NCBI GenBank assembly: GCA_050480685.1
Contig: JBJHAV010000001.1
Location: 1 to 56,356 of the forward strand
Source: Planctomycetaceae bacterium
GTDB lineage: Bacteria; Planctomycetota; UBA1135; GCA-002686595
DNA length: 56,356 nt
Direction of reading: 5' to 3'
Shown piece by piece: positions 14,695-47,084 of the stretch. Position 1 is the stretch's first letter; each line of letters begins with the position of its first letter. The notes below the pieces were generated by a model that saw only the letters and a program-made list of their open reading frames with translations, was not told the DNA's origin and did not search any database. The position numbers and the translations under genes are program-made.

Positions 14695-17592
14695 TCAATC
14701 CGAGCTCGGCGGGCCCGGGGCCAAAAATGTCTGGACCTGCCCCCGCGGAAGCCCGTCCGCGTCGTACCAAGAATCCAGCACAACCCCGTGGACCGGGTCA
14801 GCCAAGCGCTGCAACAGCGTCGCCCCGAGCGGCCCGGCCATGCCCGGATCCGTCGCCCCGTCCCGCAGCAACCCGGCCAAGGCCGGATCGAGCAGCGCGT
14901 GGCTGCTGGAAGCCTGGCTGATGCCATCCGGGCGCACCAGCCGGTCCAGATCGAAGACGGCGCCCGCCGGGTCGTAGAAACTCGCCGGCGCTTGATTGAA
15001 GGGTTTGCGGTCGGGGTTCGTGTCCAGCGGATTCACGGGCCGCCCCTGGGCGTCGAAAACGAACAGACCGCTGCCGAGTCCGGCAACCATGTGCACCCAG
15101 AAAGGAGAGTCAAGCTGGTTGCCGGTGTTCCGGCCGATGTGTGTCTTGAGCAACTCCCAGTCCAGATCGTCGTAGTTGCCGGAGGCGATCGCCTGGCGGA
15201 AGTCCTCGTACTCGGGCCCCCAGTTCTCCAGGGCGTTTTCGGTCAGGTGGCATGCGACGCAGTAGCGCGGGCCTTCCATCTTTGGACCGACCTTGCCGCG
15301 GATCGAGTGCGCCATCAAGGCGTTGTGGGAGAGGGCCGGATAGGCCGCCGCCGGACTGTTGCCTTGACCCTTGCGATCGGAGAACGCGAAGACCTGGGAC
15401 AGGTCGCCGTTCAAATCGCGGTAGCGGAAGAAGGTTTTGGTGTTGGCGCTGACCTGGGCAATCTTCCCGCGTGAGTTGATGCCAAGCTGGAAGGGCACCG
15501 GAGACTGGTAGACGAAGTCCGCGAAGCGTTCGCGGAACACGATGCGTTCCCCGGTGATGTTCGAGAAGTTGTTCCCGGTGTTGTACTCCCCTTCCAGGTG
15601 GCACCCCATGCAGGTGTTGGTCCACGCCGAGTGGCAGGTCGCACAATCCATCCGATCCGTGTGGCTGAATCCGGTGTGCGGATTGCCCACCTGCTGGGGC
15701 CCGAGGCCCGTGGAGGGATCGCCGTCGATGCGCCCCATCGCGTAGGAAGCCGCGACGCTGTAGAGGGGCGTTTCGTCGAAGGGGTTGGTCACGCCGGTAT
15801 CGACGGTGACGTCCCGTGTCTGCGGCACGAAGTGCTTGGCGCCAGTGACCTTGCTGTAGAGATAAACGTGCCCATCGGCCTCCCGGCGCACGTGGCGCAG
15901 CACGTTGCCGCGCGTGTCGGTGAGGTGCTGACCGGGCTGCCCCAGGTAGTTTGTGCCCGCGACCGTCTCCGCGTAGTGATCCACACCACCGTGACAGCTC
16001 TCGCAGGAGATCGCCACCGCCTGCTCCATGCGCGAACGAATCGGGCTCAGTCCACTGCCGAGCGTACCTCCGTGCAGTTCGTGGGACCCGTGGCAATCGA
16101 TGCAGCCCATACCGGCCTCGTAGTGGACGTCCGGAGGCGTGTCGTCCCGCCCATCTCCGTCGTAGTCCTCGAAGGATAGGTACTGATGGAAGTTGCGACC
16201 GTTGAAGGTGTTGTTGCCGACTTCCGGATCGAACAGGCGCGGATCGTCCTTGGTGTTCGTGAAGGAGACCGGATTGGCCGGATACTGCCGGTTGCGCCTC
16301 ACATCCTGGTTTTGGTCGAGCCGAATGCCCCAGTACTGCATGACGGTGCGGTTCGAACCCTGGTGGCAACCTGCGCAGGTGTGGTCGTCGATGCCTCCCA
16401 CATGCACACCCGAGTCGAGGGTGCGCGCCACACTTACGATCCGGTGTGCCCGCACGTGGGACCGTTCCCCGGACGCGATGTTGTCCGGGTTGAGAGGCTC
16501 CAGCGGATTCATGTGCGGGTCCTTGCTGCCCGTGCGTCCGCCTAGGCTGTAGGGCATGTGACACGCCGAGCATCCGGAGGACCGGAAGTCGCCCGCCCGG
16601 TTGTTGGCTCCGGCACTGCCCAGGTGGCAATCGCCGCACGTGAAGGCCACCTGTTCGTGGAACAAACGGGCGAGCTCCGAGTCGCTGATGACCCGCCCAT
16701 CGGCGAGCTGCTGGTTGGCGAGCAACGCGGCGCTGTAGGCCTGGTTGTTGTGGATCTTGTTCGGGTGGGTCGAGTTGTGCTGGCTGTGGACCGGATGTTC
16801 GATCAAACGCGGAACCTGCCCGGGTTCGGCTGTTTGCGCCGAGTAGTTGGGGTCGCTGACCGCGCGAAAGCCCAGGTCCGCCGCGGTGTCCAGATGCAGC
16901 CCCTGATTCTCCGCAACGTAGTTCTCGATGCCCGCCGAGAAGGAAGCGCCCGACAGGACCCCCGCCGAAGTGGCCAGCAAGCTGTTGGTCACCAACTCGG
17001 AGTGCGGTGCGTGGCACTCTCCGCAGCCGCGGCCGAGTTGCGTCACCCGCAGGTCGCCGGGATTGATGAACTGCAGGTAGTCGATGGCAGTGTAGGTTTT
17101 GCCGTCCACCGTGTAGTCCGGGAACTTGTCGATCCCGGCCAAGGTGCGACGGTTGAAGAAGGCCAATGCGTTGGTCTTTTGCTTCTCGCGGTCGCCGATC
17201 TGGGGCGGAGGCGGAACGTGGGCCGCGAACTGGTCGCTGGCGCTGCCATCGCCACCATGGCAAACCGTGCAGTCCATGCTCTCCGCGCCGGGAAACGGAT
17301 GCGGGTTTTCGATCCCAGGACCCGAGTAGTTCGCATCCAACGAACCGTTGTGGCACAGCATGCACGAGCTGGCCGTTTGGGGCTGCAAGCTACTGGTTTC
17401 TCCGGGAGTCCCCAGCCCGCAGCCAGTGCTGCCAACAAGCAACAGCGCAAGTCCCAGGGCGAACCCCGCGCCTCTCAGCGCACCCAAGCGCTGCCGCCTG
17501 TCCGCTTCTGCTCCGATCCGGCCTCGCATACCTCTCCCCTCCCTTGCTTCCCAAGCGACCGGCGCGTCCCCACACACCCGGCCTCGCTTCAT
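14695..17592 (-). CDS. Large multihaem c-type cytochrome (11 CxxCH), probably a lipoprotein
   Basis: I count 11 CxxCH motifs (CMLCH, CTVCH, CGECH, CGDCH, CSACH, CAGCH, CIDCH, CESCH, CATCH, CMGCH, CVACH). Signal with a lipobox-like LLLVGSTGC. An alternative start at 17529 (MRGRIG...) is possible. Confidence 0.85.
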   Translation of the reverse strand: MKRGRVCGDAPVAWEAREGRGMRGRIGAEADRRQRLGALRGAGFALGLALLLVGSTGCGLGTPGETSSLQPQTASSCMLCHNGSLDANYSGPGIENPHPFPGAESMDCTVCHGGDGSASDQFAAHVPPPPQIGDREKQKTNALAFFNRRTLAGIDKFPDYTVDGKTYTAIDYLQFINPGDLRVTQLGRGCGECHAPHSELVTNSLLATSAGVLSGASFSAGIENYVAENQGLHLDTAADLGFRAVSDPNYSAQTAEPGQVPRLIEHPVHSQHNSTHPNKIHNNQAYSAALLANQQLADGRVISDSELARLFHEQVAFTCGDCHLGSAGANNRAGDFRSSGCSACHMPYSLGGRTGSKDPHMNPLEPLNPDNIASGERSHVRAHRIVSVARTLDSGVHVGGIDDHTCAGCHQGSNRTVMQYWGIRLDQNQDVRRNRQYPANPVSFTNTKDDPRLFDPEVGNNTFNGRNFHQYLSFEDYDGDGRDDTPPDVHYEAGMGCIDCHGSHELHGGTLGSGLSPIRSRMEQAVAISCESCHGGVDHYAETVAGTNYLGQPGQHLTDTRGNVLRHVRREADGHVYLYSKVTGAKHFVPQTRDVTVDTGVTNPFDETPLYSVAASYAMGRIDGDPSTGLGPQQVGNPHTGFSHTDRMDCATCHSAWTNTCMGCHLEGEYNTGNNFSNITGERIVFRERFADFVYQSPVPFQLGINSRGKIAQVSANTKTFFRYRDLNGDLSQVFAFSDRKGQGNSPAAAYPALSHNALMAHSIRGKVGPKMEGPRYCVACHLTENALENWGPEYEDFRQAIASGNYDDLDWELLKTHIGRNTGNQLDSPFWVHMVAGLGSGLFVFDAQGRPVNPLDTNPDRKPFNQAPASFYDPAGAVFDLDRLVRPDGISQASSSHALLDPALAGLLRDGATDPGMAGPLGATLLQRLADPVHGVVLDSWYDADGLPRGQVQTFLAPGPPSSD

Positions 17593-17667: not shown

Positions 17668-18336
17668 TCAACGGACTTGGGCCTGCTGCCAGGTCGTCGG
17701 CAGGTGGCAGCGGTCGCAGCGATCGACCCAGCCGAGCGCGATGTGGTTAGGATTTTGCGCACCCTGCAGATCCGCCTGGTGGCACGACACACAATTGTGA
17801 TCGGTGGGCACGAAGCGCCCCACCGCCGAACCCGGGTGGCAACGATGGCAAGCGGTGATCGCGTGAACACCCACCAGCGGAAAACGGGTCCGGTTGTGGC
17901 GCTCCACCATGCCGACCGCTTGCCAATTCACTTCGTGGTGGCAGCTCGCGCAGTTTTGGCCCAGTTGACCGAGGTGCACGTCCTCGTGGCAGCCCGCGCA
18001 GCCACGGGCCGCGAAAACCTCCACCGGGCCTCGATCGTTGTGACACAGCAGGCACTGGGCCGCCGAGTGGGCCCCGACGAGCGCCACTCCCGTCTCCTTC
18101 TCATGGTCAAAATGGAAGTCCGCCCGCAGACGATTCCAGGAGTCACCCTCATGGCACAGACTGCAATCCGCCGGGAAGCTGTCATGGGGCAACACCGGTC
18201 CCAACCCAGACCACCAACGATGCACCTCCACCCGATGCGGCCGAGAGAGTGAGCAGGCGATCGCAAGCAGCAAGAGTGCGGCCGCGGCCACACGCCCGCG
18301 AGCTGTGGGACACAGCCAGGCGTTCAGAAGGTCCAT
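17668..18336 (-). CDS. Small multihaem c-type cytochrome (7 CxxCH, c7/c3-like modules)
   Basis: CSLCH, CLLCH, CAGCH, CASCH, CHRCH, CVSCH, CDRCH. Signal MDLLNAW...AAALLLLAIAC from the ATG at 18336. Overlaps the upstream stop by 13 nt. Confidence 0.85.
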   Translation of the reverse strand: MDLLNAWLCPTARGRVAAAALLLLAIACSLSRPHRVEVHRWWSGLGPVLPHDSFPADCSLCHEGDSWNRLRADFHFDHEKETGVALVGAHSAAQCLLCHNDRGPVEVFAARGCAGCHEDVHLGQLGQNCASCHHEVNWQAVGMVERHNRTRFPLVGVHAITACHRCHPGSAVGRFVPTDHNCVSCHQADLQGAQNPNHIALGWVDRCDRCHLPTTWQQAQVR

Positions 18337-20084
18337 TGGGCAAAGACTCCAACGGCTAGGCCGTACTCTTGGTCGCGCAGGGTGGCCTCCACGGAGCTGG
18401 AGAGGCTCAGCCGCAGGGTCGGGCGCCACACCAGACCGGCGCGCACACGGTGTTGCTGAAACTCATCGCTCTCCGATGGGAAGCCCTTTTGGCGTTGGTG
18501 GGCGTACTCGTATCCGAAGTCGCTGAAGATCCGTTCCCCACCGAACTGAAGGGACTGGCGCGCGCCAAGCACTTCGGTGAAGGCCCCATCCACAGCAAAA
18601 ACGCTGGTGTTCGATGCGGAGCCGGTCCCGAAGAGCCCATCCAGTCGGAAGCCGACCTCCACGTCCCCCCCCTCTTGGCGCACATCCTTCCAGAGCCCCA
18701 GGCGGCCGAAGACACGGCCTTCCTCCACCAGATCGGCCCACAGCTCGGCGCCAACGCGGTCGAGACGCTCCTTGGCGAGTTGCTCGGGAAGAACTTCGGG
18801 ATAAAACTCCTTGCGGTCGAGTTCGGGGAACTCAAGGTGCACGTAGTCGAGGGCCAAGCCCCAGCGCCCGTCGAATTCCCGATTGGCGTTCACGAACGCT
18901 TGGGTCAGGCCCAGGCCCGGCCCACGTTCTTCGTCGCCGCTCGTGTACCAGTCCACCCAAGCCGTGGCGAACCCGCGCCAACCATCCCGCGGCAGGTAGT
19001 GCGCCGCGAGCACGAAGAGATCCCGGTCGGCAGCGCCGTCGTTCCACGTCTTTTGATAGCCGGCCCGCGCGGCCAACCACTCGCTAGGATCCGCGACCCA
19101 CTGGTACCAGAGCCCCACCTGGAAGTCGCGCCCGCTGGTGAACTCCTGGTCCGGTAGGGGCATCCAACCCATGCTCGCGCCAAAGCGGTGACCCTCCTCG
19201 CGTCGGAAGCTCCACTCGCCCCCGTCCAACACCCCGAACTCCGGCATACCGGATTGCAGGAAGCGTCCCGCTTGCCATCCGGCGGGATCGAAGCGTGTCC
19301 CGCCCTCGCGATAACTGAAACGCTCGACCCGCAACCTGGAGCTCGAAAGATCGTCCTGCTCCACCCTGCGCGTGGCCCGCTGGTCCCATTCGACGGCCGC
19401 GTGGAGTTCGCCCCCCCGACGCCCGAGGTTGTGATAGCGCAGTTCGCCGCCCGCACGCAGGAAGCGATCCCTGCGCGAATCGTCGTCCGTCACGATTAGA
19501 TCCGCGCCCACGAACAATCGCCCGCTCATGAAGGGTGTGCGCTCCGATGGATGCACCCCGCGCAAGCCGGCGAGCAGGGGGCGATCTTGGCTCCAGTCAT
19601 CCGCTTCACGGGACCAGGCCGAGGGAGGACGCGTTTCGATGTCCCGCTCCTCCGGAGATTCCCGCGGCTCTTCGTGCGCTTCGTCGGGCCTAAAACGAGC
19701 GGCCGGAACACTCAGACTTCCGCGCGTGCCCGCCGCCCAGGAGCGACCCGGCTCCACCGGTTCCACGAGCGCCGAGCGCAGCTCGACCTCCACGACCCTC
19801 GCCAAAAACGCGACACCATCACGGGGCTGGAAGCGCACCAAGTCGCCGGGCTCCAAGCCATCCGCCGCGCCGCGATCCACGCGAGCACGGCCGCTCTCCA
19901 GGACGCCGACCACACGCATCTCCACGCGCACGTCCTGTGCGGTGGCCGCCTGGAGCACCTCCCCCTGGTCGGCGCCTTCCTGCTCAGATCCGTCTTCCGA
20001 AAGTCCCCGGGCGATCGCACGGTGATTCGGGGCGAACGCGGCAAGCGCGATCACCAATGCCGCACCGGCCAGGGAACCCCTCAT
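18324..20084 (-). CDS. Putative outer-membrane beta-barrel protein with an N-terminal soluble domain (porin-like partner of the cytochromes)
   Basis: Signal MRGSLAGAALVIALAAFA. Long stretches of alternating hydrophobic/polar residues rich in aromatics. C-terminal beta-signal-like ...LAVGVFAQWTF ending in Phe. ATGA overlap with the upstream cytochrome gene. Confidence 0.65.
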   Translation of the reverse strand: MRGSLAGAALVIALAAFAPNHRAIARGLSEDGSEQEGADQGEVLQAATAQDVRVEMRVVGVLESGRARVDRGAADGLEPGDLVRFQPRDGVAFLARVVEVELRSALVEPVEPGRSWAAGTRGSLSVPAARFRPDEAHEEPRESPEERDIETRPPSAWSREADDWSQDRPLLAGLRGVHPSERTPFMSGRLFVGADLIVTDDDSRRDRFLRAGGELRYHNLGRRGGELHAAVEWDQRATRRVEQDDLSSSRLRVERFSYREGGTRFDPAGWQAGRFLQSGMPEFGVLDGGEWSFRREEGHRFGASMGWMPLPDQEFTSGRDFQVGLWYQWVADPSEWLAARAGYQKTWNDGAADRDLFVLAAHYLPRDGWRGFATAWVDWYTSGDEERGPGLGLTQAFVNANREFDGRWGLALDYVHLEFPELDRKEFYPEVLPEQLAKERLDRVGAELWADLVEEGRVFGRLGLWKDVRQEGGDVEVGFRLDGLFGTGSASNTSVFAVDGAFTEVLGARQSLQFGGERIFSDFGYEYAHQRQKGFPSESDEFQQHRVRAGLVWRPTLRLSLSSSVEATLRDQEYGLAVGVFAQWTF

Positions 20085-22243
20085 CTCCCTCCTCCGAAGC
20101 GGCGCAGGGACCCCGAACCGACACCGTGGCAATCGGTGCATGCGCTCCCCAGGGGCTTGTAGCGGATCGTTTCTCGACCGGAGATCACGGTCGGCATGTG
20201 GCAAGCACTGCAGTCGAGCTCGCGGTGCGCCCCATCGAGCCGAAAGCGGGAGTCCCAGTCGTGATCGAAGGTGAGACTCGCGAAGTCCCGCGCCGCATCG
20301 TGGCAACGGGCACAGTCGGCCGCGCGAGGTGCACCACCGGGTGTCAGCGGCTCCCGAGCAAACTGCCCCAGGTGGGGATCAACGTGGCAGTCGGCGCAGG
20401 CATTGCCCCGCGGCGGACCCAAGCTGAGCTCACCCCGTTCGACACCCGCCAGGGGCGTGTGGCAATCGGTGCAACTGGCTTGGGCGTGGGCTCCGACCAG
20501 CGCAAAACCTGTCCACAGAGCGTGATCGAAGCCGTGGGGCAGCTCCCGGAAACTGGTTTCCCCGTGGCAGCGGGCGCACCCTTCTCGGTCGAAGAAGCGC
20601 GTCGGCAGATGGGGTCCGTCGAAGCGCCCCCCATGGGGATCGGTGTGGCACACGGCGCAGCTCTGCCCCACCTCCGCTCCACCGTGCATGGCGGGCAGGG
20701 CGCCAAATCGCTGGGCAACACGACCGAATCGGCGTCGGGCCGTGTCCGGCTCCGACTTGGGTGTGTGGCACGCAAAACAACCCTCTTGTTCGTGCGCCCC
20801 CGTCAGGGGAAAACCGGTCCAGTGCCCATGGTCAAAACGTCCATGGGGTACCTCGGAGAAACGCGTCGGGTCATGGCACTCGGCGCACGCACCCTGCGGA
20901 GCTCGCATCTCGCTCGAAATCTCGGCCAACCGACCATCGAAAAAACCGCTGTGGGCGTCCGCGTGGCAGTCCGCGCATTGGTTGGAGGTGCCGCGAAACC
21001 GCCTCGGAAGATCCGCGTGCGCCTGCTGATGGCACGCCTCACAGGACACCGCCAGATGACTGTCACTGAGCGGCATCGTGGTTCGCCCATGGTGCTCGAC
21101 ACCGAATAGGTGCGGCGCGAAGTGTGTGGTCGCGTGGCAGCCGACACAGCCTTCTTGGGCAAAGGGTCCCGTCGCGAACTGCCCCCCGTGGGGGTCCCCA
21201 TGGCAATCGATGCACGCGAGCTGCTGACGCCCCGGATGGCGTGCAGCAAAGTCCTCGAGCTGGGGATCGTGGCATGCGGAGCAGTCCAGCCGATCGTGGG
21301 GCGCCTCCAAGCGGAAACCTCCCAAAGCATGCAGGTCCGGATCGAGGGTCAGATTGGGATCGCGAAAGCTCGTGTGCGCGTGCTCGTGACAGGCGGCGCA
21401 GCTTGCTTCCAGGGAAAGCCCGAAGCGACGCGCGGCGCCAGAACCAAAGGGCAAGCCGTGGGGGGAATCATGGCAGTCGAGGCAGTTCCTCATCTCCGGC
21501 CCGCGGCCGCCGGGTCTCTGCCGCTCTAGAGCGTGTTTGGTGTTTTCCCCGTGACAGACACGACAGTTGAGCTCCGCGTGGCCACCGATCAGAGGAAGGT
21601 GGCGTTCATGCCCGAGGCTATGCGGTCGATCAAAACCGTGTTGATCGTGGCACTCGGTGCACGAGCGCTGCATGGCTCCTGCGTGGGGATCCTCGTGACA
21701 GGAAGCGCAGTTTGCTTCCAAGCCGAAGAACCTGTGGGATCCGTGGGGCAGCACATCCACGTGCGCATTGGCATGGCAAGCGCTGCAGTCCAGCTCCAGG
21801 TGGCGGCCTTCCATGTGGAAGCCGAGCCGGGAGTGATCGAATTGTGAGGGATCGGGCACCCCAGCCTTGGCAAAACTGAGGCGATTGACCGGGGTGAACC
21901 CGGTTCCATGGTGTTCTCCATGGCATTCCGCACAATCCTTGGCCCGGGCCCCGAGCAGGCCGTGCAGCCCTCTCCCGGTCTCGATGTGCTCCGCGACCGC
22001 GCCGTGGCAATCGAGGCAAGCCGAAGCCATGCTTTGGAACCAGCCCCCGTGGCATGCGCTGCAACTGTTCGGGCCGGCGAGTTCGGGAATGCTTCCGTGC
22101 ACCGCGGACAGGGGCCCCGGTGGAGTGCGCTCCACCTGCACCAGCGCCATGACCACCACCAGGGTTGCGCTGGCCACGGCAACCCAGAGCCCCGTGCGCG
22201 CCGACGGCAATCCGCTTCCCCGGATCTCTCCTTCGATCTTCAC
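20081..22243 (-). CDS. Giant multihaem c-type cytochrome (23 CxxCH) with an N-terminal membrane anchor
   Basis: I count 23 CxxCH motifs. Recurring module FDHxxxxxFxLxGAHxxxxCxxCH. GTG at 22243 gives a GTGA overlap with the upstream stop, followed by the anchor helix LWVAVASATLVVVMALV. The ORF-track start at 22351 would overlap the upstream gene by 112 nt. Confidence 0.85.
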   Translation of the reverse strand: MKIEGEIRGSGLPSARTGLWVAVASATLVVVMALVQVERTPPGPLSAVHGSIPELAGPNSCSACHGGWFQSMASACLDCHGAVAEHIETGRGLHGLLGARAKDCAECHGEHHGTGFTPVNRLSFAKAGVPDPSQFDHSRLGFHMEGRHLELDCSACHANAHVDVLPHGSHRFFGLEANCASCHEDPHAGAMQRSCTECHDQHGFDRPHSLGHERHLPLIGGHAELNCRVCHGENTKHALERQRPGGRGPEMRNCLDCHDSPHGLPFGSGAARRFGLSLEASCAACHEHAHTSFRDPNLTLDPDLHALGGFRLEAPHDRLDCSACHDPQLEDFAARHPGRQQLACIDCHGDPHGGQFATGPFAQEGCVGCHATTHFAPHLFGVEHHGRTTMPLSDSHLAVSCEACHQQAHADLPRRFRGTSNQCADCHADAHSGFFDGRLAEISSEMRAPQGACAECHDPTRFSEVPHGRFDHGHWTGFPLTGAHEQEGCFACHTPKSEPDTARRRFGRVAQRFGALPAMHGGAEVGQSCAVCHTDPHGGRFDGPHLPTRFFDREGCARCHGETSFRELPHGFDHALWTGFALVGAHAQASCTDCHTPLAGVERGELSLGPPRGNACADCHVDPHLGQFAREPLTPGGAPRAADCARCHDAARDFASLTFDHDWDSRFRLDGAHRELDCSACHMPTVISGRETIRYKPLGSACTDCHGVGSGSLRRFGGGR

Positions 22244-24531
22244 AGGGCGCCTACCGTCAACCGCACGGATCCGTAGATCCATGCGTAGGCCACGTGGAAA
22301 GCGGTCAAGAGGATCAGCAGGAGCGCGCCCCAGCGGTGCAACCACCGCCACCCGGAGGCGAGGGCACGCAGATCCTCATAGTGGGAGGAAACCAGCGCCG
22401 CGCGGTGAACACCCCGCGCCAAACGTCCCAACTCGGCCAACTGGTCTTGCGCCATTCCCGACGCGCGTGCGCGCCCGTGCAGGGCCCTCAGGAAGCGCAG
22501 CAGCGACCACTCGGATGCAACAAGTGCAATGAGCCGCGTGGGGAGGCTGGCACCCCAGCGCCGCTGCTCTACCAAGTGCGCCACCTGCTCGCGAATCTCT
22601 TGCGCCAGCCTCGGATCGACACGTTCGAAGCCAGCGGTCCAACGGGCTACACGCTCCCGCGATTCGGCCAACTCCAATTCGCGTCCGCCGGCGGCACGGG
22701 GCACACGGGCGTACAAATAGCGCCCGATCACCCCTGTGACGACCAGGGCCACCAAAACCCAGAGCGCTTGCCCGCCCAGGGTTCCGCGCACCTCCATGCC
22801 TCCATGCAGCAGCACAAGAGGCAGCGCGAGCAACCCCGTGGCCACGTGCACGTCCATCCAGGTGCGCAGCGAGGCGAACCGCACCTTCCACCACTGGCGG
22901 CGGCGCAGCAGGTACGCGAGGTTCAAGGCCAGTGCCAGCGCGGCCGCGAGGCCGAACCACAGACCCCACCCCTGCCCGGGCCTCAGGCGGCCGTGATCCA
23001 AGTGCGTTGCCCGGCCGGCCCGATCCAGGAAGTAGTAGTCCCCATGCCAAAGTGCGAAGCACAGGGCCGCCAGAGCGCCACCCAACGCTACGGAGAGCCC
23101 TAGGGTCAGCCCACGTCGCTGGGTTTCCTGGTCGGCGGCTAGCGCACGGTCGGCCGGATCGAAGGAAACACCGCAGCGCTCGAGCAACGCCTTGGGGGCT
23201 TCACCGCCCGCTTGGATGAAGACCAGGTCGTTCGCGATGCGATCGCTCGTCGAGTCGGCCGCACCCTCATCGACCTCGACCGGACCCAGAAGCACATGAT
23301 CCGCGCCGATGGATCGAACCCGCGTGCCCAAACGCGCTTCGATTCGGCCCGCTTCCAGCGCCTGTTCGAACCGTCGCTGATTTTTTGCTTTGGCGCGCAG
23401 GAGCGCACCCTGGCGGTAGCTCAGCGTTACGCGATTGCCCGGCTGTTCGGCCAAAGCCAGGGCCGTCTCGACCGCGCTGTCGCCCCCGCCGACCACCAGG
23501 ATCCGCTTGCCCCGGTGCGACTCGGCATCGAGCAGGCCGTAGGCCACCTTGGGCAGTTCCTCCCCGGGAACACCCAGACGATTGGGGGCACCCCTGCGCC
23601 CGAGCGCCAAACAGATCTGCCACGCCTTCCACTCACCCCGGCTCGTGCGCACCGTCCAGGTTCCATCCGCAGCCTGCTCGGCGCCCTGGAACTCCACTCC
23701 GCAGGTGATCGGCAGATGATGATCCGAGGCAGCTTTGCCCCAGAGTTCCATCAACTCCTCCTTGGAGTAGCTGTGACGCCCCAGCCTCCCTACAAGCGGA
23801 AGTTCGATCGGCTGGGTCAGAACGAGCTTGGCCCGCGGATAACGCGCAACGGTGCCCCCTAGGCCGGCCTCACGCTCCAAAACAGCGAAGTCCAGCCCTT
23901 GGCGCCGGGCTTCGAGGGCCGCCGCCAGACCCGCGGGGCCGGCCCCGACGATGACAAGATCGAGCACACCGGATCGCGCCGTCCGCCCGCGCGCTGCCTG
24001 GGCCGCCCGGCGAGCCACGGCAGTTCCGTGGTCGACCGCCGTCTTGACCAGCGCCTGGGCCGTCACTTCGCCGGCCAGGAACAATCCCGGTCGCCGTACC
24101 GCTTCGAGGGTCTCATCGATCGCCGGGATGTCCGTGCGGGCCTCCACATCGGAAAGCCCTAGGCGGATGGCCCCCGTGGGGCATTCCCGTGCGCATGCAC
24201 CGGTTCCGACGCAACCGGCACCCCGCACCAGGGAGGCTTGGCCGTGCAGCATCGCCAAGACTTCGTCCTCTGGACAAGCGCGCACGCACGCGCCGCAGCC
24301 CATGCACTTGTCGAGGTCGATCGTCGGGTGCCGCAGGGGTGCGCGGTCGGCTCCGACGGAGCGCACACGTTCGCGCCAATGCAGCAGCCGCTTGAGTTCG
24401 CTGCGACCTTCCCGGCGCAGAACGAACGACAGCACGGCCAAGGCGAGGGTCGAAAGCGCCCCTGTTAGCAGGGCCCAACTCACGGCTGCCTCTCCCCGAA
24501 GGTGCCTAATGCGCGCCTTCTTCCGCGGCAC
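22240..24531 (-). CDS. Fusion protein: N-terminal TM helix, ferredoxin-like FeS domain, FAD/NAD(P)H pyridine-nucleotide-disulfide-oxidoreductase-like domain, and a C-terminal 5-TM domain with two bis-His pairs
   Basis: CMGCGACVRACP and CVGTGACARECP. DLVIVGAGPAGLAAA and ILVVGGGDSAVETA dinucleotide folds. C-terminal helices carry H562/H576 and H732/H746, each pair 14 residues apart. GTG start at 24531. Confidence 0.8.
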   Translation of the reverse strand: MPRKKARIRHLRGEAAVSWALLTGALSTLALAVLSFVLRREGRSELKRLLHWRERVRSVGADRAPLRHPTIDLDKCMGCGACVRACPEDEVLAMLHGQASLVRGAGCVGTGACARECPTGAIRLGLSDVEARTDIPAIDETLEAVRRPGLFLAGEVTAQALVKTAVDHGTAVARRAAQAARGRTARSGVLDLVIVGAGPAGLAAALEARRQGLDFAVLEREAGLGGTVARYPRAKLVLTQPIELPLVGRLGRHSYSKEELMELWGKAASDHHLPITCGVEFQGAEQAADGTWTVRTSRGEWKAWQICLALGRRGAPNRLGVPGEELPKVAYGLLDAESHRGKRILVVGGGDSAVETALALAEQPGNRVTLSYRQGALLRAKAKNQRRFEQALEAGRIEARLGTRVRSIGADHVLLGPVEVDEGAADSTSDRIANDLVFIQAGGEAPKALLERCGVSFDPADRALAADQETQRRGLTLGLSVALGGALAALCFALWHGDYYFLDRAGRATHLDHGRLRPGQGWGLWFGLAAALALALNLAYLLRRRQWWKVRFASLRTWMDVHVATGLLALPLVLLHGGMEVRGTLGGQALWVLVALVVTGVIGRYLYARVPRAAGGRELELAESRERVARWTAGFERVDPRLAQEIREQVAHLVEQRRWGASLPTRLIALVASEWSLLRFLRALHGRARASGMAQDQLAELGRLARGVHRAALVSSHYEDLRALASGWRWLHRWGALLLILLTAFHVAYAWIYGSVRLTVGAL

Positions 24532-24618: not shown

Positions 24619-25311
24619 TCAGCGCGGCTCGCTGATGCGGGCCGTGGTCTGCACCCGCCCGATCGGTGCGGCACTTTGCACGTAGTCGCGACCGGCTTTG
24701 TGAAGCCGATCGATCCGCCGCGCGAGTTCGGTCAAGCCGATGCGCAGGGTGTCGATCTGCGGCTCCAGGGCCGTCACCGAGGACACGCTCAGATCATTGG
24801 CCAGATAGCGTGTGTAGTCGAGCAGCAGGTTGTTGAAGGCGTCCAGAGCCTCCTGTACGGGTCCGATGGCCGCTACGACTGCCTGATACTGGGCTTGGGT
24901 CATGCTGCGCCGCTGCCGAGCCTGCGTCGCTAGGCCCGGATCGCTGATCGCATCGATGTCGGCTTGCCAAGAGTCGAACACCGCTGCGGCCGAGGACTCC
25001 ATCGGTCCCAGCCCGGCGCGAAACCGGTCCGCTTGGGCCTGGCTGCGCTGCACCGAGGCGCGGAACGACTCGTAGGCCTTGTGGGCGTCTCCTTGCAGTT
25101 CTTGCCGCACGATCGATCGCAGCACATCGACGGCATCGCGGGCTCGGCCCTGGGCCACGTCGGCATCCAAGTGCATGCGTTCGACGCGGCCGACCAGGCC
25201 ATCCACTTGTTGGATGCCGGCTGCCTGCTGCGGCCCCTGGCAAGCGACGAGCAACGTGCCGACCGCCGCGGCGAGGACCCAACGGGTGAAAGACGTTTTC
25301 ATGGGGTTCAT
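24619..25311 (-). CDS. Coiled-coil lipoprotein, DUF2959-like
   Basis: Lipobox LLVAC. The helical, Gln/Ala/Arg-rich sequence resembles the DUF2959 family as I remember it. That family assignment is unverified. Confidence 0.55.
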   Translation of the reverse strand: MNPMKTSFTRWVLAAAVGTLLVACQGPQQAAGIQQVDGLVGRVERMHLDADVAQGRARDAVDVLRSIVRQELQGDAHKAYESFRASVQRSQAQADRFRAGLGPMESSAAAVFDSWQADIDAISDPGLATQARQRRSMTQAQYQAVVAAIGPVQEALDAFNNLLLDYTRYLANDLSVSSVTALEPQIDTLRIGLTELARRIDRLHKAGRDYVQSAAPIGRVQTTARISEPR

Positions 25312-25346: not shown

Positions 25347-27413
25347 TTATGCGGCTTCACGCGGTGAGGAATCGACAGCGAGTGTGGTCACCGCCTCCGG
25401 GCTGCCTTCGGATCGTGTTCGACTTGCGCGCCAGGCCAGGTAGGGACCGAGGCCGCACACACTCCACTGGAGCAGGTAGTAGGTCCACAGGGCCCCGTGA
25501 ACGCCGCTGGTGAAGCCGTAGCTGTGCAATCCGACGCCCAGCAAGTTCGTGCCCCACCAGGAGAAGGCCACGATGGTGCCCGTGAAAGCGGCACAGGCGG
25601 CAATGCCCACTTCACGCAGCAGACCCGAGGCCTTGCCGTGCAGAATCGCCAGCAAACCGATGCAAATCAGCAGGGCGCCGTTCTCCTTCGGATCCCAGCC
25701 CCAGAAACGCCCCCAGGAGTCGTTGGCCCAGATGCCTCCCAGGATGGTGCCCACCAGGGAGAAGATCAGTCCGAAGGCCACCGCGCCGTAGGTCATGCGC
25801 GTCAGGGCGCGGCGTCGATCGCGGGGCATGCGATCCCCGCGCACCACCCGCCAGATCAAGTAGACGCTGCCGAGGAACGCGGCGAACAGGGCCGCCGCAT
25901 AACCGATCACGATCGTGGTGACGTGGGTTGCCAACCAGAAGTTGGTGTCCAGCACGGCCACCAGACTTGGCATCGTGTCGCGCCGCTCCAGCGTTTCGTA
26001 GCCGTTTGCCAGAAACAGGCCCACGACTCCCAATCCCACGGCGAGCGCGCCCGAAATGCGCCTGCGATCGATCCACTCGATGACGAGGCCGAGGGCGACG
26101 CCGCAGGCCGTCACGAAGAGGACGGTCTCGTAGAGTGTGCTGACGGGGGGACGTTCGCGGATGATGCAGCGCAGAACGATCGCAAACGTCAGCAGCACGA
26201 GGCCCACGGTGGCAAGTCCCGTCGCCGCCGTTTGGGCAAAACGCGCCGCCGGCCGCAGCCAGGTCCAGACCGTGGCGGTGAAGGCCAGCAGGAAGGCCAC
26301 CAGGCTCCAATGCAGCGGCTTGAGGCGGTAGTAGCGGATCTCTAAATCCAATCGACGGGTTTCGCCCCGCGCCGCCGCCAGGGGTTCGGTTTGAGCCAGC
26401 AGTGCGCCCAGTGCGGCCTCGACCCGTGCCGGATCCCAGGGCCCGGCGGTAGCGCGCGCCAGGCCTTCCAAGGCTTCAAGGGAGGCAAACTCCGCCGCGC
26501 TCGCGCGCCGGCCGCCAAGTCCCGCGTGTAGCCATTCTCCGGGTGTCCACCAGTCCGGTTGCGCTGTGACCGGCTCCGCCGGCGGCAACACGGCGAGCCG
26601 CGTGGAGGCCCGACCTAGGTCCGACGCCAGTCGCAACACGCCGTCGAGGCGTGTGACCGACTCCCGATCGAGGGGGTCGCTGCTCGCCCCCCAACTCCGA
26701 TAGTGGGCCGCGACCTCGGGGCCGCGGGCGACCAACTGCGAGTAGCGGATCGAGTTCGCCCCCCCGAAGAGGGTCCGCACACTGCCGTCCGCCGGCAGGG
26801 GCAACTCGAGCTGCGCGAAGTCCAGGAAACCCGCCAAACCGAGGAACAGGTCGACCGCCTCGGCCAACTGCACCACCTGGTGCTGCAGGGAACTGCGTTG
26901 CCCGGCCGGGATCGGCGCCCACTGGTGCGCCAACTCGAAGAGTTTGGAAACGCCCGGTTGGAGCTCGTCGAACGTGTAGCGATCGCGCCGCTTCTTGATT
27001 CGCACGTCCAGTCCCAGGGCGTGCACGGCCGCCGAGTCTTGCACCTGGAAGCTGGGATAGGTCGCTGCCCGCGCCGGATCGGTCAGCACGTCGAGCAACC
27101 ACGCCGTGGCGCCGAGGGTTTCACCGTCGGGTGTCGTCACGGTGCGCCTTCCGTTCAGGCGCAGCAGGGTGAAGGAGGCGTAGGTCGAAAGCGGCTTGAC
27201 ACGACCTCCATCCTGGACAGGCAGACGCCCTGCGAGTTCCAGTGCCCGCTTCGACCACGGAGCCGTGCGCACGTCGCCCTGCACTTGTCCGTGGGCTTGG
27301 GCGAATTCGTGCGCGTGCACGCCGTGCTGTGCATTGGCGACTCCCGCGAAGGCGCTGGGAATGCCCCAGGTGGCGATCAGTACCAGGGCGGCCGCGAGCA
27401 AGCGATGCCTCAT
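25347..27413 (-). CDS. ccsA: Cytochrome c biogenesis System II protein CcsA/ResC with a ~340-aa N-terminal periplasmic extension
   Basis: WWD/Trp-rich motif WANDSWGRFWGWDPKENGALL, multiple TM helices in the C-terminal half, and a signal peptide at the N-terminus. ATGA overlap with resB. Confidence 0.85.
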   Translation of the reverse strand: MRHRLLAAALVLIATWGIPSAFAGVANAQHGVHAHEFAQAHGQVQGDVRTAPWSKRALELAGRLPVQDGGRVKPLSTYASFTLLRLNGRRTVTTPDGETLGATAWLLDVLTDPARAATYPSFQVQDSAAVHALGLDVRIKKRRDRYTFDELQPGVSKLFELAHQWAPIPAGQRSSLQHQVVQLAEAVDLFLGLAGFLDFAQLELPLPADGSVRTLFGGANSIRYSQLVARGPEVAAHYRSWGASSDPLDRESVTRLDGVLRLASDLGRASTRLAVLPPAEPVTAQPDWWTPGEWLHAGLGGRRASAAEFASLEALEGLARATAGPWDPARVEAALGALLAQTEPLAAARGETRRLDLEIRYYRLKPLHWSLVAFLLAFTATVWTWLRPAARFAQTAATGLATVGLVLLTFAIVLRCIIRERPPVSTLYETVLFVTACGVALGLVIEWIDRRRISGALAVGLGVVGLFLANGYETLERRDTMPSLVAVLDTNFWLATHVTTIVIGYAAALFAAFLGSVYLIWRVVRGDRMPRDRRRALTRMTYGAVAFGLIFSLVGTILGGIWANDSWGRFWGWDPKENGALLICIGLLAILHGKASGLLREVGIAACAAFTGTIVAFSWWGTNLLGVGLHSYGFTSGVHGALWTYYLLQWSVCGLGPYLAWRASRTRSEGSPEAVTTLAVDSSPREAA

Positions 27414-28579
27414 GATCTCGTGCGCTCCTTCGCCACGAAGAGCGCTAGCTTGCGGCCGAAGTGGAGCAGCATCCCGGCGGCGATCACCAGACAGGACCAG
27501 AGCGGCCAGGGATCGGAGGGGTTGCGCGAGACGGCCAAGGTCGAGAAAAGCGGATCGCCGGGCCGCGCGTTCGAGGGCCCCCAGGAGGCCTGGTAAAGCA
27601 CCAATCCGCGCTCCCGCAGCGGTTGGTTCATGGAGATGGTCACCGGTCGCGCGGTGCCACCTTCACGGACGAGCACATCGCTCGAAAACCAACTGGGCAT
27701 CGACGTGCGCGGGTGATCGACTTTCGTGAAGCGCTCCAGCGTGACCTCGAAGGGCATCGGCCAACGTTCGCGGCGCAGGTCGATGGCAAAAAGTTGACCT
27801 GCGACTTCCAGGGTCCAGGGCGCCGCATCGAAGGCCCACAGCATGCCCTGGGTGCGCACGCCCCCCGGTTCAACCACGTTGACGTAGGCCCCCGGTCCGT
27901 TGCGCTCCGATTGGCGATCGCGCGGCTCGGACCGCAGGAAAAATCCGTCGACCACGGGGACATCCACCTGGAAGGCCGGCCCCTTGGGCAAAGCCGTGGC
28001 GTTGCCGAACCAGTGGGTCACCTCCAGATCGAAGGGCAGGTCCGGATCGGCAAACACGAGCGGCGCGTCCGGCCGGGCATGGGCCAAACGGCGCTGGTTC
28101 ACCACCCGCTCTTCCACGCGGCCATCGGGCAAGATGCGCGAAATCGCGATCTCGTTGGTGTGGTAACTCTGGAACGAGCGCGACGTCTGACCCTCATAGA
28201 GTGTCGTGTGCCCATCCTCGGCAAAGTGCAGCTTGACGAAGCCCGAGAGCAGCAGGAAAGCGATCCCGACGTGGGTCACTAGGATGCCGGCCGTTGCCCA
28301 AGAGCGCCGCAGTCGCAGCACGCCGCCGACGAACAGATTGATGCCGAGCAGGCTCAGAACGAGGTTCGCGCCGGGCAGCGGAATCGTTACGGGTCCGGCC
28401 CAGTGAACGAGGGCGTAGGACTCGAAGTACTTCTTCTGGACGTCGTAGAGTCCGTACTCGACCTGCTCCAAAGTGCCCAGGAAGGTCAAAAGACCCAGCA
28501 GCAGGAGCAGGACGAACGCCAGCCGCATCGAACCCAAGACCGACCCGATGCGCCCACCCAAACTGCGAGCTCGTTTCAT
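27410..28579 (-). CDS. resB: Cytochrome c biogenesis System II protein ResB/CcsB (Ccs1)
   Basis: N-terminal MRLAFVLLLLLGLLTFLGTLEQ, a large periplasmic loop and a C-terminal TM helix, matching ResB layout. Coupled to ccsA. Confidence 0.8.
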   Translation of the reverse strand: MKRARSLGGRIGSVLGSMRLAFVLLLLLGLLTFLGTLEQVEYGLYDVQKKYFESYALVHWAGPVTIPLPGANLVLSLLGINLFVGGVLRLRRSWATAGILVTHVGIAFLLLSGFVKLHFAEDGHTTLYEGQTSRSFQSYHTNEIAISRILPDGRVEERVVNQRRLAHARPDAPLVFADPDLPFDLEVTHWFGNATALPKGPAFQVDVPVVDGFFLRSEPRDRQSERNGPGAYVNVVEPGGVRTQGMLWAFDAAPWTLEVAGQLFAIDLRRERWPMPFEVTLERFTKVDHPRTSMPSWFSSDVLVREGGTARPVTISMNQPLRERGLVLYQASWGPSNARPGDPLFSTLAVSRNPSDPWPLWSCLVIAAGMLLHFGRKLALFVAKERTRS

Positions 28580-29859
28580 CGGACCTCCTCAAGGGAAGAG
28601 AGCAGTTCGAGGAAGTGCCCGCGCTGCGCCCTTGCGGTGGCCTGCGGCCCGATCAGCTTGAGGAAAACCGTGCGCTGGTCCAGCATCGCCACGGCGCCCA
28701 GCAGGTAAGCGTTCTCGAGGGAGCTCTCGCCCATGCCGCGGTAGTGGCCGGTGGCTTCGATCAGCACCGCTTGGACTCCTAGGGCGTCCACGCGCTCCAA
28801 TGAGGCGTGTTCGGCCGGGGACAGGGGCCCGAGTCCGATTTGACCGCGCCAGCGATCCAGGTTGGATCGCACACCACCGCCGTCGCCGGCCAGCACCGCC
28901 ATGTAGATCTCGACTTCCCCTTGCGTGCCTGCGTGCCACGTGGCGACGCGCATGGGCCTGGCCGCCCCGTCGACCCAAGGATCGGGTCGGGTCCACGCCA
29001 GCCCCTGGCCGCCCGTGCGCGCTTCGGAAGCGCCCTGATGCGCGCCACCGACGTAAGCCCGTGCGCCCGGTTCCTTCGCCCCATGCTCGGCGCAGTCGTC
29101 CCAGTCGTGATCGGAACCATGCCCGTGGGTGTACCCGTGATCGGTTGCTGGCCACTCGAATCGCAGGGAGGCGGCAAAGGTCTCGAACGCCGCGAGCTCC
29201 GCGCGCACGATCTCCTCGGGGCCGGTGAATTTGAGGAAGGCGGAACCTTCCGGATCCACAGCCAATAGCCCGAGCATGCGATATCCGGGCCCACCACCCG
29301 CCGCCGGATCACTGGGTAGCGCCATGCCCCCGTAGGTCCCCGCTGCGTCGAACCAGACCGCGGGCACACCCAGCAACGTGCGGCGTTCCAACGCAGCGAT
29401 CCCCGCTTTACCGAAAGGGGCGAGGCCGAGTTGTGCGCGCCAACGATCCACGTTGGCCGCCAGCCCTCCGCCGTCCCCATTCAAGAACGTCAGCGTCACC
29501 TCGGCGCGCGCATCACCGGCGGCCAGGAGGTTGAGCGTGCGCATGTCCGTGGGCGCCAACTCGCGCCAGCCCTCGGGAAGCTCGTGGGCCAGAACCGGTT
29601 CCGAAGCCTGCCCCGCGGAAGGCGCCGCTTGCCTCCCGGTGCCCCCCGCCTGCCGCCCCGGGGCCGCTGCCCCCGTGAAGCCAAAGCGCTCCGCCGTGGG
29701 GACGCCCATGCGCGGAGCACGTTCCTCGACCACACGGACCACGTCGAAGCTTTCGAGCCCGCGATGGGCATCGCCGCAGCCCACGCCCCACCAGGCGAGG
29801 CAGCCCACAAGCCACGGAGCCCCGCTATTTCGAATCCTCTGCACCAACACCCCCTCCAC
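28576..29859 (-). CDS. Lipoprotein with two tandem copies of an uncharacterised ~140-aa domain joined by a His-rich linker
   Basis: Motif GDGGGxxxNxDRWRxQxGLxP occurs twice (aa 128-147 and 325-344) inside two alignable halves. Linker HGYTHGHGSDHDWDDCAEHG. ATGA overlap with resB. Alternative GTG/TTG starts are possible. Confidence 0.65.
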   Translation of the reverse strand: MEGVLVQRIRNSGAPWLVGCLAWWGVGCGDAHRGLESFDVVRVVEERAPRMGVPTAERFGFTGAAAPGRQAGGTGRQAAPSAGQASEPVLAHELPEGWRELAPTDMRTLNLLAAGDARAEVTLTFLNGDGGGLAANVDRWRAQLGLAPFGKAGIAALERRTLLGVPAVWFDAAGTYGGMALPSDPAAGGGPGYRMLGLLAVDPEGSAFLKFTGPEEIVRAELAAFETFAASLRFEWPATDHGYTHGHGSDHDWDDCAEHGAKEPGARAYVGGAHQGASEARTGGQGLAWTRPDPWVDGAARPMRVATWHAGTQGEVEIYMAVLAGDGGGVRSNLDRWRGQIGLGPLSPAEHASLERVDALGVQAVLIEATGHYRGMGESSLENAYLLGAVAMLDQRTVFLKLIGPQATARAQRGHFLELLSSLEEVR

Positions 29860-46896: not shown

Positions 46897-47084
46897 CAGG
46901 GAGGTCGCCGAGCCGAGGCTTCGCAAGCGCTGACGGGCGGCGTGTTGCGAAGGTCAAGCACCCCCTCGCTGCCCGTGGGTGGGGGAGCTCACTTTCGCGG
47001 GCGTAACGCAATCCAGCCCGGGGATGTGTTGTTATCTTGTACCGACACCGTAGGTGCGCTCTCGGGCGGCCGCGGTGTCACCCC

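Follow-up and report, generated by a model that had tools for sequence, protein, structure and literature searches.

The DNA analysed here, positions 1 to 56,356 of contig JBJHAV010000001.1 of a Planctomycetaceae bacterium (assembly GCA_050480685.1), is called the window below. On its reverse strand it carries a gene in which a membrane anchor, a ferredoxin-type iron-sulfur (FeS) domain, a flavoprotein resembling the YpdA and thioredoxin reductase (TrxR) enzymes and a five-helix membrane domain with two His pairs are joined in one polypeptide. This fusion protein probably serves as an outward, quinone-independent electron exporter, in which electrons would pass from NAD(P)H through FAD, FeS clusters and two b haems to multihaem c-type cytochromes. 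The direct grounds for this are the domain composition, the conservation of the motifs, the predicted topology, the fold of the flavoprotein and the linkage of the genes in fused as well as in split forms. In the public databases the protein is named only as "NAD(P)-binding domain-containing protein" or "ferredoxin-NADP reductase".

The maximal open reading frame at 22240-24531 on the reverse strand encodes 763 residues, and a preliminary description of this DNA, made from its sequence, had placed the start of the protein at 24531. The N-terminus reads M-S-W-x-L-L in 44 of the 45 orthologues inspected, the remaining one being a shorter gene call, and the counterpart of this start in the window is the GTG codon at 24483, which has a purine-rich, ribosome-binding-like stretch (GGGGAGAGG) just 5' of it. 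On account of the orthologue N-termini and this upstream stretch the start at 24531 was given up for GTG 24483, the likely start codon of a 747-aa protein. The 16 extra codons of the maximal frame (48 nt, 24484-24531) encode a very basic peptide, PRKKARIRHLRG, which was not found in the orthologues inspected and is probably untranslated. The 747-aa numbering is obtained by subtracting 16 from the residue numbers of the 763-aa frame used previously, and it is followed below unless the 763-aa numbering is named. Every motif listed in the preliminary description could be found in its place, apart from the last residue of the second dinucleotide-binding motif. Motif conservation in the fusion was counted over 120 full-length orthologues, and the whole protein was modelled with AlphaFold2 (AF2) from an alignment of 131 sequences (predicted local distance difference test score, pLDDT, 87.8; predicted template-modelling score, pTM, 0.76). 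The features of the gene are as follows (TM, transmembrane helix).

22240-24483 (-), including the stop codon: fusion protein gene, 747 aa, conserved start; the database gene call (P0025) is also 747 aa
24409-24480 (-): TM0, N-terminal membrane anchor, residues 2-25 (AF2 helix 2-25, pLDDT 91-95)
24148-24330 (-): ferredoxin-type FeS domain with seven Cys (Pfam Fer4_7, Fer4, Fer4_10)
24271-24306 (-): FeS motif 1, CMGCGACVRACP, residue 76 in 763-aa numbering
24178-24213 (-): FeS motif 2, CVGTGACARECP, with Thr for the second Cys, residue 107 in 763-aa numbering
23119-23964 (-): YpdA/TrxR-like flavoprotein with two dinucleotide-binding domains (Pfam Pyr_redox_3, 114 bits; Pyr_redox_2, 86 bits)
23929-23946 (-): FAD motif GAGPAG, position 196 in 763-aa numbering
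23473-23490 (-): NAD(P)H motif GGGDSA, position 348 in 763-aa numbering
22243-23115 (-): C-terminal membrane domain of five TM helices, a putative dihaem cytochrome b of the type of the PCC3 inner-membrane protein (see below)
22804-22869 (-): TM3, W542-x3-H546-x13-H560 (His codons 22846-22848 and 22804-22806)
22708-22779 (-): TM4 with the (S/T)GxxGR motif (TGVIGRY), both Gly invariant or nearly so
22381-22707 (-): Arg-rich helical insert between TM4 and TM5, predicted cytoplasmic, about 110 residues (593-701; AF2 helices 605-622, 624-639, 647-674 and 679-700)
22273-22380 (-): TM5, W712-x3-H716-x13-H730 (His codons 22336-22338 and 22294-22296)

The membrane domain

The C-terminal domain had been described as five predicted helices, two of which each hold a His pair. 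AF2 likewise predicts five TM helices in this region (457-479, 505-529, 539-560, 569-592 and 702-737; pLDDT 89.5 and pTM 0.84 when the domain was modelled by itself), to which the N-terminal TM helix of the protein and the insert of about 110 residues have to be added. The His pairs (His562/His576 and His732/His746 in 763-aa numbering) are encoded where the preliminary description had them, and the members of each pair are exactly 14 residues apart. That description had made its dihaem interpretation depend on the conservation of the four His among homologues, and the alignments bear it out. All four are invariant in 120 of 120 orthologues; in 20 of 20 distant homologues, with identities down to 23%, they are invariant together with two Trp, two Gly, an Arg and a Pro; and a diverse sample of 151 family sequences has all four in 141 cases, the ten others being nine truncated fragments and one sequence with Ile at the third position. 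In the latter sample the Trp residues were found in 151 of 151 (W558, 763-aa numbering) and in 144 of 151 sequences (W728, the remainder being gaps), and the Gly residues of TM4 in 151 (G600) and 150 (G603); the consensus of the standalone members on TM4 is SGxxGRY.

When residues 457-747 were used as query, few close relatives were found, among them free-standing proteins of 270-340 aa with 23-38% identity. A profile search of 1.84 billion representative proteins, clustered at 50% identity, gave 5,230 clusters for the membrane-domain family at E <= 1e-3 and 679 at E <= 1e-30; the best 150 of the 5,230 clusters include 94 standalone proteins (<= 340 aa) and 18 long fusions. The named relatives belong to Planctomycetota, Kofleriaceae, Calditrichota, Zixibacteria and Elusimicrobiota, and a tblastn search of plasmids with the membrane domain returned zero matches. 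The insert between TM4 and TM5 is present in the standalone members too; the PDB offers nothing that matches it significantly in structure or sequence, and we propose that it may be a docking platform for the FeS/flavoprotein module.

The orientation of the protein could be predicted from the charge distribution over the 120 orthologues. TM0 is preceded by no charged residue and is followed by about two Lys/Arg at its C-terminal end and seven in the adjoining linker. In the periplasmic loops between TM1 and TM2 and between TM3 and TM4, and in the C-terminal tail, the mean number of Lys plus Arg is 3.3, 0.8 and 0.5, respectively, offset by acidic residues; the cytoplasmic end of TM2 with the TM2-TM3 loop has about 3.8 and almost no acidic residues, and the TM4-TM5 insert has 19.8. 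The predicted topology has the N-terminus outside, the FeS domain and the flavoprotein inside and the C-terminus outside. H546 and H716, each four residues after an interfacial Trp, are predicted in the inner leaflet, and H560 and H730 near the periplasmic surface. The same leaflets, with the long basic loop in the cytoplasm, had been assigned to these His previously, and the positive-inside counts agree with it. The side of the flavoprotein had been left uncertain at that time, for positive charge was seen on both sides of TM0. With the start at GTG 24483 the side formed by the basic PRKKARIRHLRG peptide is gone, and therefore this caveat is resolved: there are 0 charges on the N-terminal side and about nine Lys/Arg on the C-terminal side. 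A periplasmic flavoprotein exported by the Tat or the Sec route was ruled out, since there is no twin-arginine motif and no charge before TM0, and NAD(P)H is cytoplasmic.

The modules of the fusion had been called unrelated to those of NOX, and as regards the membrane module this has to be softened in view of its weak, sub-threshold matches to the two-haem clan of Pfam. The window domain scores 20.8-21.6 bits against DUF4405 (PF14358; gathering threshold 26.7) and 12.8 bits against Ferric_reduct (PF01794; cutoff 28), both matches being located at TM5. Weak matches of the same kind occur in the family for DUF4405 (17 of 20 members), Ferric_reduct (13 of 20, best E 2.1e-5) and Ni_hydr_CYTB (6 of 20), and some database relatives have a precomputed PF14358 match. 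In the search of PDB sequences TM5 also resembled helix B of cytochrome b6 (W..R..HRW.A...LH), below significance (E 0.12). By sequence the membrane domain is thus a distinct family, tied to the NOX-type and cytochrome-b-type haem domains at the level of motif or clan only.

Its closest described counterpart is the "conserved inner-membrane protein" (IMP) of the PCC3 and PCC4 porin-cytochrome clusters, which was defined by a W-x3-H-x13-H and SGxxG signature and proposed, in a quinone-linked model, to bind two b haems and to conduct electrons through the inner membrane (He et al. 2017, PMC5566968). The domain of the window has five TM helices in approx. 300 aa (290 residues or so, as in the IMP), W-x3-H-x13-H on both TM3 and TM5, and TGVIG at the SGxxG site of TM4; the correspondence is one of published signature and not of direct sequence comparison. 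The IMP is likewise encoded beside a periplasmic cytochrome of about 20-27 haems, a porin and more multihaem cytochromes, and a many-haem periplasmic cytochrome, a putative porin and further multihaem cytochromes accompany the fusion gene. The differences are that the domain described here is fused to, or elsewhere encoded beside, a membrane-anchored FeS flavoprotein, a partner not described for PCC3 by He et al., that the lineage is Planctomycetota and not Proteobacteria, and that the gene order is another one.

A feature of its own is the periplasmic loop between TM1 and TM2 (residues 480-504; 22972-23046), with a strongly conserved DYYxL...RxxHxxHxxLRP(G/S)G motif in which the Tyr is invariant and the two His are frequently conserved. 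It may bind the propionates of the outer haem or dock the 23-haem cytochrome.

The FeS domain and the flavoprotein

The preliminary description had noted one complete CxxCxxCxxxCP motif and a second one with Thr in place of its second Cys, and both were found. It had also considered that the second site might be degenerate; this option falls, since the seven Cys of the Fer4 domain are invariant in all 120 orthologues. The eighth position, that of the second Cys of motif 2, is occupied by Val, His, Ile or Thr in 117 of the 120, Cys being outside the four commonest residues. The domain thus lacks the two full motifs with eight Cys of a bacterial-type 2x[4Fe-4S] ferredoxin; the seven-Cys pattern fits the classical signature of a 7Fe ([3Fe-4S] + [4Fe-4S]) domain, or, in the sequences with His at this position, that of a His-ligated cluster. 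One [4Fe-4S] and one [3Fe-4S]-type cluster would accordingly be expected in this domain. The FeS domain comes directly after the membrane anchor and is therefore the membrane-proximal portion of the soluble module, where a wire from flavin to haem should sit.

The identity of the eighth residue varies in its own way: it is His in 33 of the 120 Planctomycetota orthologues and in all three flavoproteins of the split forms examined (CxGHGxC), and Thr, Val or Ile elsewhere. This suggests that the family may switch between a His-ligated [4Fe-4S] and a [3Fe-4S] cluster.

Of the two GxGxxG folds reported for the flavoprotein, the first (GAGPAG, at 196) fits this pattern; the one at 348 reads GGGDSA and has to be written GxGxxA. 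Both the FAD and the NAD(P)H motif are invariant in the 120 orthologues. An S-Y-R motif follows the second Rossmann strand, its Arg being invariant, its Ser present in 112 and its Tyr in 119 of 120 sequences. Because enzymes of the TrxR type bind the 2'-phosphate with such an Arg, the conserved residue suggests NADPH as the substrate. The Pyr_redox_2 and Pyr_redox_3 domains and the Rossmann motifs are accompanied by the matching fold of the TrxR-like flavoproteins: in the Foldseek search with the AF2 model the top PDB matches were bacillithiol-disulfide reductases YpdA/Bdr (7a76, E 1.9e-17, target-normalised TM-score 0.69), followed by TrxR-type ferredoxin-NADP+ reductases (FNRs). Residues 174-455 of the fusion have their closest structural and sequence match in these proteins (PDB 7a76, 6gar, 3ab1, 3lzw), with which they have two Rossmann-type domains with FAD and NADPH motifs in common. 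The nearest NCBIfam models stay well below their cutoffs (TIGR04018, YpdA, 125.8 against 339.9 bits; TIGR01292, TrxR, 67.4 against 343.5 bits).

YpdA carries a Cys within its FAD motif, where the fusion has GAGPAG. No active-site Cys of the YpdA kind is present, and no redox-active CxxC pair could be found outside the Fer4 domain, either in the window protein or in the 120 orthologues. Disulfide-reductase function was ruled out for lack of a redox-active Cys pair. Unlike YpdA and TrxR, the module is anchored in the membrane and joined to FeS and haem domains. The flavoprotein has a lone Cys at residue 291 (C307 in 763-aa numbering; 23563-23565), in the ...VCLALGRRG strand, which is conserved in 119 of 120 orthologues and has no partner Cys.

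Gene neighbourhood and split forms

The fusion gene lies in a row of genes of the same strand, the remaining members of which are listed here.

20081-22243 (-): 23-haem c-type cytochrome, 720 aa, with an N-terminal hydrophobic anchor or signal; 23 CxxCH, 31 aa per haem
18324-20084 (-): putative outer-membrane beta-barrel (porin), 586 aa; signal peptide, no Cys, C-terminal ...AQWTF
17668-18336 (-): 7-haem cytochrome c, 222 aa, lipoprotein-like signal (LAIAC)
14695-17592 (-): 11-haem cytochrome c, up to 965 aa, lipobox-like signal (VGSTGC)
24619-25311 (-): DUF2959 lipoprotein, 230 aa, signal ending in LVAC (Pfam DUF2959, 68 bits); directly upstream of the fusion
25347-27413 (-): CcsA-like protein of System II cytochrome c maturation
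27410-28579 (-): ResB-like protein of System II cytochrome c maturation
28576-29859 (-): 427-aa protein without family match

The next gene had been said to overlap the fusion by GTGA and to encode a 23-haem cytochrome; the overlap is there, and so are 23 CxxCH in 720 residues, which match Cytochrome_C7 and DmsE-like models. The 23-haem and the porin gene overlap by ATGA, and the porin and the 7-haem gene by 13 nt, so that the junctions between 17668 and 22243 indicate tight translational coupling. The 586-aa protein has no Pfam or NCBIfam match, and it is from its sequence features that it is taken as a putative outer-membrane porin. The 11-haem protein is a candidate cell-surface cytochrome.

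The arrangement is not peculiar to the window. With one genome scanned per species, relatives of the fused form were detected in 358 species-level genomes, and the statistics of the loci come from the best 80 of these, almost all of which are Planctomycetota. The fusion of Fer4 and flavoprotein was seen in 70 of the 72 loci that could be judged, and a cytochrome with at least 15 haems lies directly downstream of the fusion in 59 of 60 loci, having exactly 23 haems in 43 of them. Among the 34 loci with full flanks the 23-haem and the 7-haem cytochromes were each found in all 34, the putative porin in 33, the DUF2959 lipoprotein in 25 (upstream, on the same strand), the 11-haem cytochrome in 23 and the ccs maturation genes in 14. 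Engelhardtia mirabilis Pla133 has the gene order of the window: ResB, CcsA, a few genes, the DUF2959 lipoprotein, the fusion, the 23-haem cytochrome, a 582-aa protein without family, the 7-haem cytochrome and the counterpart of the 11-haem cytochrome (955 aa, 11 haems).

Other lineages have one gene for the membrane protein and another for the flavoprotein, both in operons of this kind, and four different gene orders were found.

L002: membrane protein, flavoprotein, 23-haem cytochrome, 37-haem cytochrome, 531-aa protein ending in F
L085: flavoprotein, membrane protein, 20-haem cytochrome, 16-haem cytochrome, 536-aa protein ending in W
P0018 contig: flavoprotein on the opposite strand, adjoining the membrane protein, which is followed by two cytochrome c genes and a 523-aa protein
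L088: membrane protein, 20-haem cytochrome, 16-haem cytochrome, 545-aa protein, flavoprotein

The separate flavoprotein of L002 is 41% identical to residues 58-452 of the window protein, and the 23-haem cytochrome of the same locus is 33% identical to that of the window over its full length. The three split-form flavoproteins that were translated (L002, L085 and L088) have the same seven-Cys pattern, in the form CxGHGxC. The N-terminal anchor is kept as well, as a helix detected by hydropathy in L085 and L088, and in L002 as an M/V-S-W-x-L-L start that lies below the hydropathy threshold. These split forms are the strongest evidence for a functional coupling of the flavoprotein and the membrane protein.

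Proposed electron path and alternatives

The cofactor content, the donor, the contacts between the partners, the bypass of the quinone pool, the direction of the flow and the physiological role are what we infer from the above. In the proposed scheme TM0 would insert with the N-terminus outside, so that the ferredoxin domain and the flavoprotein would be cytoplasmic, next to the membrane. NAD(P)H, probably NADPH, would reduce FAD, and single electrons from FAD would pass through the [4Fe-4S] and then the [3Fe-4S]-type cluster to the inner one of two b haems stacked across the membrane, held by H546 and H716, and from there to the outer one, held by H560 and H730. The outer haem would deliver the electrons to the periplasmic 23-haem cytochrome c, tethered to the inner membrane, which would pass them on, at the outer membrane, to the putative porin and the lipoprotein cytochromes of 7 and 11 haems, and finally to an extracellular acceptor, for example Fe(III), Mn(IV) or humic substances. 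The quinone pool would not be needed in such a path, a bypass that is suggested because the flavoprotein is fused to the membrane domain. The midpoint potential of NAD(P)H is low, near -320 mV, and the membrane potential favours the passage of electrons from the negative side to the positive. For these reasons, and since the reverse would be doubly uphill with no coupling device, the flow is expected to be outward. Outward flow would dissipate the membrane potential, as that of NOX does, and therefore a role in electron disposal or redox balancing seems likely; the making of reduced extracellular species would be another possible role, energy-conserving respiration not.

We propose more tentatively, and as something that may well turn out otherwise, that the whole row of proteins forms one continuous quinone-independent wire from NADPH to the exterior, made up of FAD, two FeS clusters, two b haems, 23 + 7 + 11 c haems and the porin, and that the same flavoprotein partnership provides PCC3-like conduits of several phyla with their missing link on the cytoplasmic side.

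Some of the results weigh against the exporter proposal. All the Pfam matches of the window membrane domain are under the gathering thresholds. When its model was compared with the PDB by Foldseek, only non-significant all-helical matches were obtained (best E 0.35), a negative that should not be given much weight, since the method performs poorly with helical membrane bundles; searches of PDB sequences with two family profiles gave nothing significant. At three loci (L086, L087 and L089) no flavoprotein gene was seen beside the standalone membrane protein in the limited sequence available. The partnership, though recurrent, may therefore not be universal, and the standalone protein may work with another partner too, such as quinone, as He et al. 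proposed. Finally, outward flow spends the membrane potential, so that a physiological benefit to the cell is not obvious.

It is unlikely, in our judgement, that the dihaem domain is a quinol:cytochrome c oxidoreductase or a quinone reductase through which electrons run mainly by way of the quinone pool, the fused flavoprotein being then a membrane-bound NAD(P)H:quinone reductase or a mere side entry to the haems. To our knowledge the inner-membrane components of extracellular electron transfer that have been characterised are quinol dehydrogenases without exception (CymA, ImcH, CbcL, CbcBA), and the Ndh2 route of Listeria goes via quinone, which is in favour of such coupling. The NDH-2 enzymes, moreover, belong to the same broad flavoprotein fold class, and beside several standalone members the sequence examined holds no flavoprotein gene. 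A quinone-active cytochrome b was also what He et al. proposed for the IMPs of the same signature (PMC5566968). The architecture of the fusion speaks the other way, since an FeS domain between the anchor and the FAD domain suits a one-electron wire to haem and not a two-electron enzyme that passes hydride to quinone, and the NDH-2 enzymes have no FeS. There are five arrangements in which the flavoprotein and the membrane protein are fused or closely linked. A motif for a quinone site could not be identified, and the conserved Arg, Tyr and His at the helix ends could be explained as ligands of the haem propionates. Far less probable is an inward path, in which the fusion would use the electrons of an extracellular donor (Fe(II), a cathode) to reduce cytoplasmic NAD(P)+. 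The PCC3 clusters were first found in Fe(II)-oxidising bacteria (PMC5566968, PMC10734462) and the Mto/Mtr multihaem conduits are able to run either way (PMC10734462); the midpoint of NAD(P)+, near -320 mV, nevertheless lies below most environmental donors, electron movement from the positive to the negative side opposes the membrane potential, and neither a proton channel nor a bifurcating second flavin, nor any other device for coupling, can be recognised in the architecture.

The logic of the exporter, NAD(P)H to flavin to two haems, is that of NOX, FRE and MsrQ-Fre, and together with the weak Ferric_reduct matches this could point to a true NOX or ferric reductase, the outer haem of which would reduce O2 to superoxide or a periplasmic ferric chelate while the cytochromes are functionally separate. 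We give this little credence, for a multihaem cytochrome is next to the fusion in 59 of 60 loci with a translationally coupled start, and the split forms lie within the same cytochrome-porin operons. The System II genes (ResB and CcsA) upstream in the window and in E. mirabilis would be in line with a TrxR-like module that provides thiol-reducing power for cytochrome c maturation, outside any electron-transfer chain. Such a function is very improbable: the flavoprotein has no redox-active CxxC pair, thiol relays rely on Cys pairs and not on His-ligated haems, and ccs genes are present in 14 of the 34 loci as against the cytochromes in 34 of 34.

If the fusion is the exporter proposed above, its relation to the known systems is one of partial likeness. 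NOX, FRE and SpNOX also conduct electrons within a single polypeptide from NAD(P)H through flavin and two bis-His b haems in outward, electrogenic transfer, and the His pairs spaced 13-14 residues apart on the third and fifth helices are found here too. Their dehydrogenase is a C-terminal, FNR-like FAD/NADPH module, whereas that of the fusion is N-terminal and Pyr_redox_3/YpdA-like; no structural similarity to solved NOX, FRD or cytochrome b domains was found by Foldseek against the PDB (none with E < 0.001). Unlike NOX, the fusion would have two FeS clusters on the way from flavin to haem, its membrane part consists of five helices, a separate anchor and a 110-residue cytoplasmic insert, and its proposed acceptor is a multihaem cytochrome, that of NOX and the ferric reductases being O2 or a ferric chelate. 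In STEAP a haem domain of the ferric-reductase type is paired with a non-FNR NAD(P)H or flavin module, and in MsrQ-Fre(-MsrP) a separate cytoplasmic flavin reductase serves a periplasmic partner; these two parallel the fused and the split forms. STEAP, however, contains a single haem and an FAD that spans the membrane, the partner of MsrQ is a molybdoenzyme, and neither has FeS or a multihaem partner. The Tmc and Hmc complexes of sulfate reducers also link periplasmic multihaem c to a cytoplasmic FeS protein via a membrane cytochrome b, but these are multi-subunit complexes with an unrelated HdrD-like CCG FeS subunit and no NAD(P)H flavoprotein, and their electron flow is thought to be inward. 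With the DUF4405-like, PepSY-TM and FezC cytochromes the domain has in common four highly conserved His at the centre of a helical bundle in the membrane, and a purified DUF4405 protein was shown by experiment to bind haem b (Huang et al. 2024, mSystems, PMC11334425). These proteins go with ApbE flavinylation or ferrosomes and not with multihaem conduits (PMC11334425), and DUF4405 has six helices, as compared with five and an insert in the window domain.

Searches of a limited library of papers found no description of a fusion of an FeS flavoprotein with such a membrane domain; a 2013 Zixibacteria paper, a 2017 Verrucomicrobia paper and a 2026 peat preprint are about other clusters. Already known are the principle (NOX/FRE, STEAP, MsrQ-Fre) and, from a bioinformatic description of 2017, the membrane module and the cluster type (PMC5566968). 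What appears to be new is the membrane-anchored YpdA/TrxR-like dehydrogenase module with a seven-Cys ferredoxin domain, the fact that in several phyla this module is fused or closely linked to the PCC3-type membrane protein, and the implied connection of these conduits to the pyridine-nucleotide pool. If the proposal holds, a widespread class of extracellular electron transfer would be wired to this pool and not to that of the respiratory quinones, and a dehydrogenase fused to a transmembrane haem relay would be a design unlike the known quinol-dehydrogenase entry points. The oxidation of cytoplasmic NAD(P)H would involve neither the quinone pool nor energy conservation and would make up an electron-disposal valve comparable to the eukaryotic NOX, and the PCC3-type "conserved inner-membrane protein", the function of which has been guesswork since 2017, would gain a concrete partner. 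The system is not rare, as relatives of the fused form occur in the 358 species-level genomes and the membrane-domain clusters at 50% identity number more than 5,000. Cultured strains with the cluster are available (E. mirabilis Pla133 and Rohdeia mirabilis Pla163), and thus genetics and biochemistry are feasible.

Two further observations concern genes outside the proposed path. A Ser/Thr kinase fused to an FGE-sulfatase domain is encoded at 47037-49628 (+) of the window, and L085 has a gene of this sort (854 aa; at 1-333) in the vicinity of its split-form cluster; this is probably coincidental. In the clusters of the standalone type the second cytochrome can be very large, with 52 CxxCH in 1,282 aa at L087 (9573-13421) and 58 CxxCH in 1,426 aa at L089 (9583-13863), which are among the largest haem counts known to us, and a C-terminal CHP(D/N/R)G motif recurs across the large cytochromes of this type.

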